DNA of 64,000 bases, from positions 7,111-71,110 of the forward strand of contig JAZSQI010000042.1 of assembly GCA_045537895.1 (NCBI GenBank), read 5' to 3'. Origin of the DNA: Clostridia bacterium (GTDB lineage Bacteria > Bacillota > Clostridia > TANB77 > CAG-465). A program made the translations under genes and the position numbers. The number at the start of each line of letters is the position of its first letter. Position 1 is the first letter of the stretch. The notes beneath the pieces were generated by a model. That model did not search any database, was not told the origin of the DNA, and was given only the letters and a program-made list of their open reading frames with translations. This document shows, one piece after another, positions 1 through 5,013 of this stretch.

Positions 1-1525
1 GCGATAATAATTCCTTTGTTATTTTTTTCATACTTACAAATTCTTTTGCAATTTTTTTAATTTCTTCATTATTATTTTTTATTACTTTTTCTTTTGATAG
101 TAGAATTATATATTCTTCTCGTTTAGTAACAAGTTTTTCTTTTTCAGCTGAAATATTTTTAGATATAGTTTTGAATTGATCTTCACTTATTAAATTAGTT
201 GCTTTATCCATATATGAATCACTTAAACATTTATCTAAATTTCCAATCTTATTATCTAGTTCTTTTATTATTTCTTTATACTCTTTTGTTAGCTCCATTG
301 ATTCTTTTTCTTTTAAAGCTAAATTTGTTAATTCATTAGATAAATCTTTTCTTAAATATTTTTTACATACTCCTTTAATATTATTTAGTATTACTTCCTC
401 TATTGCTGAAATACTATTTGCATGTCTTGTACAAGCCTTATTATATAACTTAGTATAAGTATAGCATACCGTTGTATATTTATATTCACCATGCTTTTGA
501 TAATACTTATGAGAATACGATAACATTAATCTAGCTCCACACTCTTCACAGAAAAGTAATCCTTTTAATAAATAATCATGTTTTGTACCTTTAAAAGAAC
601 TATTGCCACTTATTCTTTTTTGAACTTCATCAAAAATTTCTTGTGATACTATTGCTTCGTGTGTACCTTTAACCAATATTCTATTTTCTTTTGGAACATC
701 TACTCTTATTTTAGATTTATAGTTAAGCTTTGTTCTTTTTAATTGTTCTAAATCACCAACATATACTATATTTTTTAACATACGACTAATAGTAGTCTGT
801 TTCCAACAATTATATAATGCTGTTTTATTTGAAGGTTTTATATTTCTAGATACACCAGGTACTTCATAACCTTTTTCTGTAAATATTTGAGCTATTTTAG
901 TTAATCCTTTTCCCTGCAAATATAACTCAAAAGCTTCTCTAACAATCTTTGCTTCGCTTTCATTTATTATTAAATGATGTCTATTTTCAGGATCTTTCAT
1001 ATATCCATAAGGTGTTGATGCTCCTAAAAACTTACCTGATTTTTTCTTTTCATGCAATGCACTCTTAATTTTTTTAGAAAAGTCTTTTACATACATATCA
1101 TTTATAATAGATTTAAAAGGTGCAATATCATTCATACCTGCATCTTTTAAAGTATCTATACCATCTAGCAAAGCCATATACCTAACATTATGCTCTGGAA
1201 AATATCTCTGTACATAATTACCAGTATCAATATAATCTCTACCAAGTCTTGATAAGTCTTTTGTTATTACTGTATCAATAATGCCTTTCTCAATATCCCT
1301 TTTCATTTGCTTAAAAGCAGGTCTTTCAAAATTAGTACCAGAATAGCCATCGTCTACATACTCATTTACAAATAATAAATCATTGTTTTCTTTAATAAAT
1401 CTTTTTAATATTTCTCTTTGACTTGTTACACTAGAACTTTCTTCTTTATCACCATCCTCACGAGATAATCTTATATATATTCCTACTTTATAATATTGTT
1501 TTTGATTACTTAATATATTAACCAT
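1..1525 (-). CDS. Large serine recombinase (partial; the 3' end runs off the window start)
   Basis: Missing from the ORF track because it is open-ended. Reverse-strand ATG at 1525-1523, with AGGAGG at 1531-1536. My translation is MVNILSNQKQYYKVGIYIRLSREDGDKEESSSVTSQREILK...YVDDGYSGTNFERPAFKQM...VITKDLSRLGRD (resolvase catalytic domain). A recombinase domain follows, then a Cys-rich zinc ribbon (LFCEECGARL...) and a coiled coil. The frame is open for about 508 codons. Confidence 0.85.
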   Translation of the reverse strand, partial: MVNILSNQKQYYKVGIYIRLSREDGDKEESSSVTSQREILKRFIKENNDLLFVNEYVDDGYSGTNFERPAFKQMKRDIEKGIIDTVITKDLSRLGRDYIDTGNYVQRYFPEHNVRYMALLDGIDTLKDAGMNDIAPFKSIINDMYVKDFSKKIKSALHEKKKSGKFLGASTPYGYMKDPENRHHLIINESEAKIVREAFELYLQGKGLTKIAQIFTEKGYEVPGVSRNIKPSNKTALYNCWKQTTISRMLKNIVYVGDLEQLKRTKLNYKSKIRVDVPKENRILVKGTHEAIVSQEIFDEVQKRISGNSSFKGTKHDYLLKGLLFCEECGARLMLSYSHKYYQKHGEYKYTTVCYTYTKLYNKACTRHANSISAIEEVILNNIKGVCKKYLRKDLSNELTNLALKEKESMELTKEYKEIIKELDNKIGNLDKCLSDSYMDKATNLISEDQFKTISKNISAEKEKLVTKREEYIILLSKEKVIKNNNEEIKKIAKEFVSMKKITKELLS

Positions 1526-1982: not shown

Positions 1983-2405
1983 CTATTTCCAACTAATTTT
2001 TTTAGGCACATCTGCACCACCTACAATCCCACTTTTTAATATGAAACTATGACTCTTTTCGTTATATCTATATATAGATGGATTCCAATTACGAAAGACT
2101 CTATTATTCATGGGCTTTCTTCCATCTGATAATTCTGAACTTGCTTGTTGATGCATTCTCTTTAATATGTGATTATCTGTATTAACTTGTTCTTTTCTCT
2201 TCTTTTCAACTCTTCTTTGAATTTCTTTATTATGTTTAATTTTATTTAATTCTTTTCTTGTTTCTTTTTCTTTTTTATATCTTGCATCATTTTTTACAAT
2301 TTTTGAAACTGCATTTGTTGATATATTTAACATATTAGCAATATCAACTTGTTTCAGTTTTTCATCAAAATATAATTGTAGAACTTTTTCTTTATTTGAT
2401 TTCAT
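1983..2405 (-). CDS. HTH DNA-binding protein (sigma region-4-like HTH)
   Basis: LKQVDIANMLNISTNAVSKIVKND is a helix-turn-helix. A basic linker follows. Confidence 0.5.
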   Translation of the reverse strand: MKSNKEKVLQLYFDEKLKQVDIANMLNISTNAVSKIVKNDARYKKEKETRKELNKIKHNKEIQRRVEKKRKEQVNTDNHILKRMHQQASSELSDGRKPMNNRVFRNWNPSIYRYNEKSHSFILKSGIVGGADVPKKISWK

Positions 2406-2910: not shown

Positions 2911-3078
2911 TTATTTTTTTCTATTTCTTGATAATTTAATAAAAATTTCTATTTTTATTTCTTGATATAAATCCTCATCAAATTGATTATTTATTATTGA
3001 TTTGCTAACAATTAAAGGATCATAATCCTTTATTATCTTTTCTATTTCTTCATCGGTTAACGAATAATTATTAAACAT
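2911..3078 (-). CDS. Small hypothetical protein (55 aa)
   Basis: Below the track's size cutoff. Its ATG overlaps the stop of the sigma-like gene (ATGTTTAA). My translation is MFNNYSLTDEEIEKIIKDYDPLIVSKSIINNQFDEDLYQEIKIEIFIKLSRNRKK. Confidence 0.3.
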   Translation of the reverse strand: MFNNYSLTDEEIEKIIKDYDPLIVSKSIINNQFDEDLYQEIKIEIFIKLSRNRKK

Positions 3079-3508
3079 CGTTATTCCCTCCTTCTAATTT
3101 TCTTTTTATTTTATTTATTGCTTTTGTTTTTATTTTCCATACTGTCTCTCTAAAAATCCCCAAACTAGATGCAACTTCATTTACATTCTTATTCTCACAA
3201 TATAAAGAAAAAAGCACCGTCTTTTCTTTTAAAGACAATGCTTCTACACATTTATATAATTTTTTATTTGACATCACATCTTGAAGGTTATTTGCAGATA
3301 ATAATGCCTGTTCTAATCTTTCTGTTATTTCATATTTTTCATCTATTATATAATCTTCGTACAATCCATCGATTTCGTTTATACTATAAATTTCATCTCT
3401 TATGTATTTGTTCATTCTATTAATAACTAACTTTTTTAAATATGCTTTTTCTTCATTTGATAATTCTTCTATTAAATAATTCTTTCTTTCCATTTTATCA
3501 TTCTCCAA
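3071..3508 (-). CDS. Small sigma-70 family protein (region 4 HTH)
   Basis: C-terminal LSLKEKTVLFSLYCENKNVNEVASSLGIFRETVWKIKTKAINKIKRKL matches the region-4 pattern. Confidence 0.6.
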   Translation of the reverse strand: MENDKMERKNYLIEELSNEEKAYLKKLVINRMNKYIRDEIYSINEIDGLYEDYIIDEKYEITERLEQALLSANNLQDVMSNKKLYKCVEALSLKEKTVLFSLYCENKNVNEVASSLGIFRETVWKIKTKAINKIKRKLEGGNNDV

Positions 3509-3716
3509 TCCTAATTAATTGGACAATGCCATAAAACAAAGAAAGAATTAATCTTTATTTGTTATTTAATATACACCATAATACATCCCTCCTTAACAAT
3601 TCTCTAAAACTGAAAAAACCTTATTACATATATCAACCTCTTATGATTCTTTCCTTATTTTAGATATTGCCCTTATAGGAATATTACCATTTTTTATGTT
3701 GAATTTGTTAAAAAGT

Positions 3717-3750
3717 GTATAAAAGGGTATAAAAGGGTACAAAAGGGTAT
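3717..3750. repeat. Tandem 10-bp iterons GTAYAAAAGG (about 3.5 copies)
   Basis: The sequence reads gtataaaagg gtataaaagg gtacaaaagg gtattttt. It lies in the divergent intergenic region between the sigma-like gene and the Spo0A-like gene. Confidence 0.5.
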
Positions 3751-3800
3751 TTTTTTAAGATAAAAATATCAATTTTTGACACTTTCAGTTACCATAAATA

Positions 3801-3829
3801 TTGTTATTTTGATATTCCTATGATATAAT
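3801..3829 (+). promoter_or_regulatory. SigA-type promoter for the Spo0A-like gene
   Basis: TTGTTA, a 17-nt spacer, then TATAAT with a TG extension (tgatataat at 3821-3829). Confidence 0.4.
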
Positions 3830-3871
3830 AAGTACAATTATTTATAGAAATTATAAGGTTGGGATGTATAG

Positions 3872-4585
3872 ATGTTTACAAAAGTCTTGATAGCTGAAGA
3901 TAATATGGCAATATATTCAACTTATAAAGATATATTGTCGGCAGATAAATCAATAGAGATAATAGGTCATGCACAGGATGGATTGTCTGCTATAGAAATG
4001 TATAATAAAACTAATCCTGATGTTTTTCTTCTAGATTTAGGATTACCTGAAAAAAATGGTATAGAAATCGTTAACGAACTTTCCAACTCTGAAGAAAGTA
4101 AATGTGACATCATTGTAGTATCAGGAGATACCGAATTAAGACAACAATTATTTAATACTAAAAAGGTATACAGAATTATACCTAAACCTTTCGACTCCGA
4201 AATACTTACTCAAACAATTCACAAGCTAAAGAAAGAACAAGTACTGGCATCATTCCCAAAAGAAAAATATTACGAGCTACTACTTAAACTTAAATTAAAA
4301 CCTTATTCTCGTAGCTGCAAAGTTTTAACAAGTATGGTTAAACTAGCCTATCAAGATATATCACTATTAGAAAACATGAATAACTTATATACTACATTAG
4401 CATATAAGCAACACTGTCCACCTCAAAAAATAAAAGAGAGTTTACGAAGCTCTATTAGAATTGCAAATCGCTATTCTAGTAGATCAGTTTTAAACTCTCT
4501 TTTTCACATTTCTGATGATGATTATAATAATACTATAACACCTAAACAATTCTTAAATGGTATTTTGTTTCATTTAAAACAATAA
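3872..4585 (+). CDS. Spo0A-like response regulator (receiver domain plus Spo0A_C-type DNA-binding domain)
   Basis: Receiver motifs: LIAEDN, DVFLLDLGLPEKNG, IIVVSG, IPKPFD. The C-terminal LKPYSRSCKVLTSMVKLAYQDISLLENMNNLYTTLAYKQHCPPQKIKESLRSSIRIA parallels the Spo0A effector domain. Confidence 0.7.
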   Translation: MFTKVLIAEDNMAIYSTYKDILSADKSIEIIGHAQDGLSAIEMYNKTNPDVFLLDLGLPEKNGIEIVNELSNSEESKCDIIVVSGDTELRQQLFNTKKVYRIIPKPFDSEILTQTIHKLKKEQVLASFPKEKYYELLLKLKLKPYSRSCKVLTSMVKLAYQDISLLENMNNLYTTLAYKQHCPPQKIKESLRSSIRIANRYSSRSVLNSLFHISDDDYNNTITPKQFLNGILFHLKQ

Positions 4586-4691: not shown

Positions 4692-4967
4692 ATGAATAAA
4701 GCAGATCTAATTAATGCTATTGCAGAAAAAGCTGACTTAACAAAAAAAGCATCAGAAGTTGCTTTAACTTCTATCATTGATTCTATTACTGAATCATTAA
4801 AAAAAGGTGATAAAGTTCAATTAGTTGGATTTGGTAGTTTTGAAGTAAGACAAAAAGCAGCTAGAAAAGGACACAATCCTTTAACTGGTGAAGAAATCAA
4901 AATACCTGCTTGTAAAGCACCTGCATTTAAGGCTGGTAAAGCACTAAAAGAAAAAGTTAATAAATAG
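4692..4967 (+). CDS. hup: DNA-binding protein HU
   Basis: [13 protein letters not shown]...[46 protein letters not shown] is a canonical HU sequence. Confidence 0.9.
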
Positions 4968-4974
4968 TAAAATA

Positions 4975-5013
4975 TATGGTATAGAAAAAAATTCTATACC
5001 ATACTCTTTTTTT
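4975..5013. terminator. Bidirectional intrinsic terminator
   Basis: A 12-bp stem (tatggtatagaa / ttctataccata), flanked by an A run and a T run, between convergent hup and the T4CP gene. Confidence 0.7.

Follow-up and report, generated by a model that had tools for sequence, protein, structure and literature searches.

We analysed a 64,000-nt stretch of the genome of a member of the Clostridia (GenBank assembly GCA_045537895.1, contig JAZSQI010000042.1, positions 7,111 to 71,110 of the forward strand; hereafter the window), which belongs to a host genome of 1.34 Mb in 49 contigs and has ~26% GC across its length. The window carries a mobile element inserted in a spore-protein gene. Towards its left end the element encodes a response regulator with a Spo0A-type effector domain, transcribed divergently from a sigma-like operon across an array of phased repeats (iterons) that we predict to be the regulator's operator. 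The core of the locus comprises the following features (aa, amino acids; ORF, open reading frame):

3872-4585 (+): response regulator gene, an intact ORF of 237 aa, with a receiver at residues 1-120 and a Spo0A-type effector domain at residues ~130-237
3705-3754 (no strand assigned): iteron array with the consensus GGGTAYAAAA and a 10-bp unit spacing, predicted to be the regulator's operator
3715, 3725, 3735, and 3745: iteron units GTGTATAAAA, GGGTATAAAA, GGGTACAAAA, and GGGTATTTTT, in exact 10-bp phase
3705: degenerate iteron unit TTGTTAAAAA, in 10-bp phase with the array
3801-3838 (+): two sigma-A-type promoter candidates of the regulator gene, TTGTTA-17-TGATATAAT and TTGATA-18-TACAAT
3681-3689 (-): predicted extended -10 element TGGTAATAT of the sigma-like operon promoter, a conserved motif with no good -35
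3518-3672 (-): conserved ~29-bp inverted repeat in the leader of the sigma-like operon (arms ~3518-3548 and ~3640-3672)
3071-3508 (-): sigma-70 region-4-like protein; translation from TTG gives 145 aa, but the ATG at 3493 is the more probable start (140 aa); the gene faces the regulator and opens the operon

The element regulator and its relation to Spo0A

Pfam profiles placed Response_reg at residues 5-116 of the regulator (62.6 bits) and Spo0A_C at residues 135-232 (35.1 bits against a cut-off of 25). The protein thus belongs on both counts to the response regulators that combine PF00072 and PF08769, having a phospho-acceptor receiver as well as a Spo0A_C domain recognised by score and by fold. 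In the receiver, the acidic pair E9/D10, D55 (within DVFLLDLGLP), S84, and K105-P106 are all in place. E9, D10, D55, and K105-P106 are invariant in the 14 closest family members, with S or T at position 84; in a wider set of 98 aligned sequences (seven Spo0A orthologues and two other paralogues among them), 88 retain D55 and 89 retain K105. The conservation of these residues among relatives suggests that the phospho-switch is functional.

Among solved structures, the N-terminal half matched the Spo0A receiver best by sequence (1DZ3/1QMP, E = 5.9e-11), only slightly better than CheY. The C-terminal half alone matched 1FC3/1LQ1 weakly in a phmmer search of the PDB (E = 0.1-0.2), and its fold was therefore tested with AlphaFold2 and Foldseek. 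Because a Foldseek search with the full-length model was swamped by receiver domains, the C-terminal domain was modelled alone. The model of residues 125-237 (predicted local distance difference test score, pLDDT, 89.3) had 1LQ1 and 1FC3 as its sole significant matches in the PDB (template modelling, TM, score 0.76-0.77; probability 1.0; root-mean-square deviation 2.4-2.8 Å over 108-112 columns), the next match having an E-value of 2.3. An initial annotation of this locus had described a 237-aa protein with a complete receiver, a Spo0A-type effector domain, the phospho-acceptor context DVFLLDLGLP, and conserved S/T and K positions; the Pfam scores, the modelled fold, a collinear match to TIGR02875, and the presence of D55, S84, and K105 bear this description out.

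TIGR02875, the NCBIfam equivalog model of Spo0A, aligned with residues 4-223 of the regulator at 77.1 bits, against a cut-off of 200. The host's canonical Spo0A (271 aa) is encoded on another contig, C43, and its effector domain matches 1LQ1 at E = 8e-43. The recognition helix of the host protein, SRVERAIRHAIEVAW, is identical to that of the proteins in the crystal structures (B. subtilis/G. stearothermophilus) and recurs in Spo0A of six relatives. At the aligned position (residues ~184-198) the element regulator has QKIKESLRSSIRIAN, identical to SRVERAIRHAIEVAW at 3 of 15 positions in three independent alignments and with charge reversals E to K, R to E, and E to R; the argument here is from invariance of the whole helix, not from individually named base contacts. 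The inter-domain linker is also ~25 residues shorter than that of Spo0A. In a maximum-likelihood tree of 97 proteins, Spo0A orthologues formed a tight separate clade (support 100/99), while the regulator fell in a 19-row clade (100/99), itself part of an 81-row radiation of Spo0A-like regulators of 230-250 aa, which has long branches and in which the recognition helix is hypervariable. Given the equivalog score below cut-off, the diverged helix, and the canonical Spo0A elsewhere in the host, the element regulator is, judged by sequence, a Spo0A paralogue and not Spo0A.

Phased iterons and the divergent operon

Single GTAYAAA sites number 1087 in the 1.34-Mb genome, and a pair of them 10 bp apart occurs at the 3705-3754 array only. 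Single iteron units elsewhere in the element showed no enrichment (19 observed versus 12.8 expected). The spacing has a precedent, as the Spo0A domains in 1LQ1 bind tandem 0A boxes as 10-bp-spaced direct repeats, head-to-tail.

Among the related loci, which are introduced below, the GTAYAAAA core in 10-bp phase is kept in L007, L005, L099, L100, and L116; L103 has a mixture of iteron units and L114 a variant unit, G[TC]TAAAAA. These seven iteron-bearing loci encode regulators with 42-53% identity to the window protein, and iteron-sharing regulators have the helix motif IK(S/E)S(L/I)RSSIR in common. Regulators of the sister clade B (helix K/Q-W-S-I/V-R/H) go with other repeats, AGTTGAAAA or TGAAAAG. 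Individual pairings of helix and repeat were:

L090 regulator: helix KTKWSVHSSLATM, repeat AGTTGAAAA
L092 regulator: helix KTVKWSIRTSIDTL, repeat TGAAAAG
P0004 regulator (locus L114): helix KIKSCLRTAIDNS, repeat G[TC]TAAAAA

It is mainly on account of this clade-level covariation of helix and repeat, together with the genome-wide uniqueness of the array, that we regard the iterons as probably the regulator's binding sites.

The array is tied in position to the sigma-like operon. In an alignment of five clade-A loci, there were zero indels between the iterons and a TGnTAWAWT motif on the sigma-like strand, and no -35 match was found upstream of this motif; the iterons fall at about -31 to -80 of the predicted operon promoter. 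Their distance to the regulator's own start differs among loci. A candidate regulator promoter homologous to that of the window was seen in L007 (TTGAAA-17-TGTTATAAT). In the operon leader, the inverted repeat encloses 100-190 nt with AGGAGG and a tiny ORF (MYYGVY, then stop, in the window). RNAalifold on the five loci returned 29 pairs in the repeat, 6 of them with compensatory changes; it could be a leader RNA stem or supply the arms of an invertible DNA switch.

The first gene product of the operon matched a sigma-factor PHROG (E = 4.6e-8). The rest of the operon, and the genes on the other side of the regulator, are as follows (HTH, helix-turn-helix):

2911-3078 (-): HTH_16 protein, 55 aa (26.5 bits against a cut-off of 22), always paired with the sigma-like gene
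1983-2405 (-): HTH protein, 140 aa (Sigma70_r4, 25.8 bits), a conserved operon member
2650-2859, 2474-2674, and 1613-1771: small ORFs around the gene for the 140-aa HTH protein, candidate recombination directionality factors
1592-1564 (-): recombinase promoter TTGTAA-17-TGTTATAAT, a good match
2-1525 (-): large serine recombinase, 554 aa, with its own promoter; the gene ends at contig position C2:6971, beyond the window
4692-4967 (+): HU-family DNA-binding protein, 91 aa, downstream of the regulator
4975-5003 (both strands): bidirectional terminator on which the regulator and HU genes converge

A PHROGs search with the small ORFs of the operon returned no function. In other large-serine-recombinase systems the directionality factor is the regulated component (PMC5595907); by analogy, the regulated product here may be one of these small ORFs.

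The element, its insertion site, and related loci

The left junction of the element lies 251 bp outside the window, on a contig that extends 7.1 kb to the left of it. The 5′ half of an alpha/beta-type small acid-soluble spore protein (SASP) gene (MASRNSYVNPNAKAALEKMKYEVASEV...) was found at C2:6779-6858, just beyond the recombinase end, and its 3′ half (...GVNLKQGYNGDLTSRQAGSIGGQMVKKLIEKAESNM, then stop) at the opposite end of the element:

62172-62288 (+): attR core GAAGT (62172-62176), then the 3′ half of the SASP gene (62177-62288), ending ...KAESNM, then stop

These two halves are the sole PF00269 matches in the genome, and five of five congeners have exactly one intact SASP gene each. The intact congener genes give attB as ...GCTTCTGAAGT/TGGTGTAAAC... 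(...GAAGT/TGGTG...), and comparison of attL and attR with the five congeners defines a clean insertion of ~62.4 kb with the core GAAGT, so that excision would restore the SASP reading frame. The circle joint is predicted to read ...CAGCAACAGAAGT/GGCTGTAAAAAA.... The element precisely interrupts a sporulation gene within its coding sequence and has a large serine recombinase at one end, the hallmarks of a gene-intervening element. The setting drawn by the initial annotation, namely a mobile element sitting in a spore-protein gene, with the regulator divergent from a small sigma-like gene across phased iterons, is thus confirmed by the attachment sites, by four phased units plus a degenerate one, and by a sigma-like gene at 3071-3508 (-) that has a PHROG match and profile scores just below threshold.

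Beside attR (window 62133-62157) lies a 15-mer, AAGGTATCGATTACT, that has an inverted copy in the 5′ untranslated region of the recombinase (1541-1555). At attR the 15-mer is directly followed by GGGTATAAAT, one mismatch from an iteron unit, which may be due to chance because the window contains 19 such one-mismatch sites.

All called genes are on the minus strand except those for the regulator and the HU protein behind it. Transfer genes on the element, on the minus strand, comprise two VirD4-type coupling proteins, a VirB4/TraG-type ATPase, and TrbL, and by this gene content the element is conjugative; further genes encode a SpaA/thioester adhesin, a DNA methylase, an ArdA-like protein, DUF3560, and a SAM synthetase. 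A prophage identity was considered and rejected, given the type IV secretion genes and the lack of virion genes among the ORFs scanned.

A search among 5.8 billion proteins recovered 13 close relatives of the regulator (39-98% identity). The family alignment returned generic receiver matches only, and no relative, from 185,579 species genomes, whereas three more distant homologues turned up in the host's own taxonomic family, for which 79 genomes including G000 were searched. A scan of IMG/VR gave no relative, one of JGI metagenomes gave a single true relative (L118), and tblastn of the regulator against plasmids gave receiver-level matches only. We examined 12 related loci (L005, L007, L090, L091, L092, L099, L100, L103, L107, L114, L116, and L118). 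In each of the 12, a sigma-like gene of 132-160 aa is transcribed divergently from the regulator and is followed by an HTH gene of 55-79 aa; the partner deviates in L005 (182 aa, with a weak region-4 match). In loci with long flanks the operon continues via an HTH protein of 137-143 aa and small ORFs to a recombinase, which is a large serine recombinase in L007, L099, L100, L103, L114, and L116, and a tyrosine integrase in L005, L106, L107, and L118. The cargo on the other side differs, including a coupling protein, a lysin and holin, a diversity-generating retroelement, BREX, and restriction genes. As the cassette is conserved while the cargo varies, the regulator belongs to the recombination and regulation module and not to the cargo.

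Several relatives also sit in spore genes. In L007 (4972-7221) and L099 (1686-3872) the reading frame of the recombinase continues into a full SpoVT_C domain (158 bits), placing these elements inside spoVT. An N-terminally truncated SleB/CwlJ-type Hydrolase_2 gene abuts the recombinase stop codon in L100/L101 (L100:682-1032), as does an N-terminally truncated Mn-catalase (CotJC-type) gene in L116 (1587-2018). Counting ssp in the window, the element family thus has four different spore-gene targets. Two of them, ssp and spoVT, are presumably forespore-expressed, as in model spore-formers, which makes the family unusual among gene-intervening elements.

A second connection to sporulation comes from clade B. 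In L092 (2188-2440, -), L118 (7745-7994), and L091 (1982-2230, -), the sequence TTTTGTCGAA-N3-ATTGAA-N17-TGATAWAAT is invariant upstream of the regulator (3/3 aligned), which puts a perfect 0A box 3 nt upstream of the -35 of the regulator promoter. L092 and L118 have a second perfect TGTCGAA 20 bp further upstream, in phase with the elements' own repeats. With a 0A box beside the promoter, host Spo0A probably controls the regulator gene directly in clade B. The window's element, unlike the clade-B loci, has no perfect 0A box. Taken together, the spore-gene targets of related elements and the true 0A boxes in the sister clade make a coupling of excision to sporulation plausible.

The regulator is an orphan: no histidine kinase was detected on the element in a six-frame search with HATPase_c. 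Complete histidine kinases of the host number only three; those on C9 and C12 are paired and that on C47 (572 aa) is an orphan. The receiver of the regulator is 24.4% identical to that of host Spo0A, 23.7% to that of a WalR-like host regulator, and 24.4% to that of a LytTR-type host regulator. Its helix alpha-1, the helix that carries partner-specificity residues in other two-component systems, has 0 of 12 residues in common with that of Spo0A. Overall, the two-component repertoire of the host is very small, with six receiver proteins (including Spo0A and the element regulator) and, besides the complete kinases, a kinase fragment at the start of C6.

Proposed mechanism, alternatives, and known systems

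On balance, we consider it reasonably probable that the protein is an element-specific, phosphorylation-dependent regulator, most likely an activator of the sigma-like and recombination operon that acts through its private repeats. A host phosphodonor would phosphorylate the regulator at D55, and the phosphorylated form would bind the GGGTAYAAAA repeats at 3705-3754 head-to-tail and activate the sigma-like operon (the sigma-like protein, the HTH_16 protein, and the small candidate directionality factors). The operon products would in turn set off excision by the serine recombinase, which has a promoter of its own. Once the element is circular, minus-strand transcripts from the left end would run across the joint and reach the conjugation genes on the right, as in Tn916; from the geometry of the element, such read-through could take place. 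Phosphorylation, iteron binding, activation in preference to repression, and the link to excision are steps that we infer from sequence. Activation is favoured because the iterons occupy the place of a -35, the extended -10 lacks one, and the spacing to the sigma-like motif is fixed.

Several observations weigh against this proposal. The sigma-like protein scores just below threshold with both profiles (Sigma70_r4, 24.0 bits against a cut-off of 24.1; TIGR02937, 40.2 against 42.9), and tblastn of this protein against plasmids gave no match, including to plasmid-borne Tn916 orf7. The promoter assignment rests on a consensus-like motif that is poor in L100. The covariation of iteron and helix covers about three clades, hence not many independent events. 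Further layers of control are shown by the conserved inverted repeat in the leader, and a terminator-like hairpin (15 pairs and a T run) lies inside the sigma-like ORF at 3245-3210 (-).

The same iterons could instead serve repression, with the regulator silencing the sigma-like and excision operon, like the immunity-type repressors Orf9 of Tn916 and ImmR of ICEBs1, so that transfer would be released once phosphorylation or the protein itself is lost. The regulator does hold the divergent position usual for repressors in the regulatory modules of such elements, and the proximal degenerate unit overlaps the -35 position, where binding can occlude RNA polymerase. However, promoters with an extended -10, no -35, and phased upstream repeats have the usual activator-dependent layout, and this is the layout seen here, with repeats in helical phase from about -31 to -80; effector domains of the Spo0A type activate transcription when bound there, though they are also able to repress. 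We therefore hold repression to be unlikely. A further possibility, competition for phosphorelay input, was also raised by the initial annotation: the host orphan kinase might phosphorylate both Spo0A and the regulator, making the element a sensor of sporulation and perhaps, as a phosphate sink, a damper on it. The element has no kinase while the host has one orphan, C47, the receiver's best solved-structure match is Spo0A-N, elements of the family lie within spore genes, and the sister clade has perfect 0A boxes at the regulator promoter. Yet the receiver is as close to the WalR-like and LytTR-type host regulators as to Spo0A, nothing of helix alpha-1 is held in common with Spo0A, and the Spo0A-N match is barely above that of CheY, so that we judge such cross-talk quite improbable. 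It is compatible with an element-specific activator, to which it would add and which it would not replace.

The initial annotation had suggested that the regulator binds 0A boxes and competes with Spo0A at host promoters, and had proposed an alignment of its recognition helix to that of host Spo0A as a check. The fold equals that of the Spo0A DNA-binding domain, and the 10-bp spacing of the repeats resembles that of tandem 0A boxes. Against this, the aligned helix is, as far as can be told, too diverged to read a 0A box, and the iteron core GGTACAA departs from TGTCGAA at the C and the second G; Spo0A binding depends on the G and C residues of the 0A box (PMC3485338). We found 0 TGTCGAA boxes in the 64-kb window (1.8 expected), compared with 46 in the host genome, one of them just upstream of spoIIAA at C2:3075. 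Because of the diverged helix, the different core, and a window devoid of TGTCGAA, and with the regulator's own predicted operator inside the element, competition for 0A boxes finds no support and we think it very improbable.

The element regulator resembles Spo0A (1QMP, 1LQ1, and 1FC3) in its two domains, the acidic pocket, T and K of the receiver, an effector fold that is collinear helix by helix (TM 0.77), and a predicted operator of 10-bp direct repeats by a promoter, similar to tandem 0A boxes. It differs in the shorter linker, the replaced recognition helix, the distant position in the tree, the location on a mobile element in a host that keeps its own Spo0A, and the predicted operator GGGTAYAAAA in place of TGTCGAA. 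In CTnDOT of Bacteroides, the element-encoded response regulator RteB, of NtrC type, acts with the kinase RteA and heads the excision cascade. The likeness is that of a response regulator of a conjugative element atop an excision cascade, a role only proposed for the window element, which in contrast has no kinase and an effector domain of a different type.

In gene order the module also recalls that of Tn916/Tn5397 (orf9, orf7, orf8, recombinase): a gene with borderline sigma-factor matches and a small HTH gene are transcribed towards a recombinase at the end of the element, with a divergent regulator adjoining. The transfer genes are likewise all co-oriented, such that circularisation would couple them to the promoter. 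In contrast to the HTH_3 repressor of Tn916, the divergent regulator here is a response regulator. In Tn916, Porf7 expresses the conjugation genes only after circularisation (PMC11658703). The spo0A homologues carried by phages of gut viromes consist of the effector domain only, without a receiver (Schwartz et al. 2023, PMC10294663). They share with the present regulator a Spo0A-type effector domain on a mobile element of spore-forming gut bacteria, whereas the latter keeps a full receiver and has its own predicted operator, as opposed to presumed 0A-box targets. Neither a full-length Spo0A-like regulator borne by a conjugative element nor one with its own operator was described in the literature searched, which is not proof of novelty.

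In its insertion, the window's element resembles the sporulation gene-intervening elements skin, SPbeta, vfbin, and gin, which are precise, restorable insertions of large-serine-recombinase elements within coding sequences (PMC5595907, PMC4191935, PMC5025042). The elements in sigK, spsM, and gerE act in the mother cell, and their excision is terminal (PMC5595907). The present family, in contrast, targets ssp and spoVT, and the window's member is conjugative and carries a Spo0A-like regulator. To our knowledge, the other known gene-intervening cases also belong to the mother cell. It is conceivable, though we would call it a long shot, that the cassette marks elements dwelling in spore genes (ssp, spoVT, and those of SleB/CwlJ and CotJC type) that excise at the onset of sporulation via a Spo0A-derived regulator, which would take its input from the sporulation kinase or, in clade B, from Spo0A itself acting at 0A boxes. 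If so, excision would restore genes including forespore-expressed ones, the host's only SASP gene would be rebuilt in the germ-line compartment, and the element would have to pass the spore stage as a circle and then re-integrate when the spore germinates, or else leave by transfer. We know of no earlier description of such a developmental rearrangement.

The effector domain of Spo0A is usually seen as serving one purpose, with a DNA-reading helix that hardly varies. Here, dozens of short paralogues share the fold and carry hypervariable helices; at least one of their clades is built into the control cassettes of mobile elements with matched private predicted operators. These proteins offer a natural series for learning how the Spo0A fold reads DNA and, if the proposed activator role is correct, a new type of switch for conjugative elements of gut spore-formers. 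As the elements split the only SASP gene, spoVT, and cortex or coat genes, element activity and spore quality are physically linked, and this link may bear on how gut Clostridia persist and are transmitted.

Other Spo0A-like proteins were encountered in the course of the analysis. The host chromosome encodes two receiver-less Spo0A_C paralogues, which have in common an N-terminal motif of ~25 residues, MY.I.T.NEK. One, a protein of 150 aa (C18:11545-11997; L002:1477-1929, -), has an almost intact Spo0A helix (SRVERAIRHAIETA) and full-length relatives in 2/6 genera of the family, and is a better candidate for 0A-box competition than the element regulator. The other, on C38 (L004:1420-2250, -), is a 276-aa protein with two diverged Spo0A_C copies. 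A second type of Spo0A-like regulator, 242-246 aa in length, was present at L007:16405-17746 and L105:5571-7744, in both loci downstream of an extracytoplasmic function (ECF) sigma factor and a protein of 322-394 aa, possibly an anti-sigma factor; in L007, pilin and sortase genes lie nearby.

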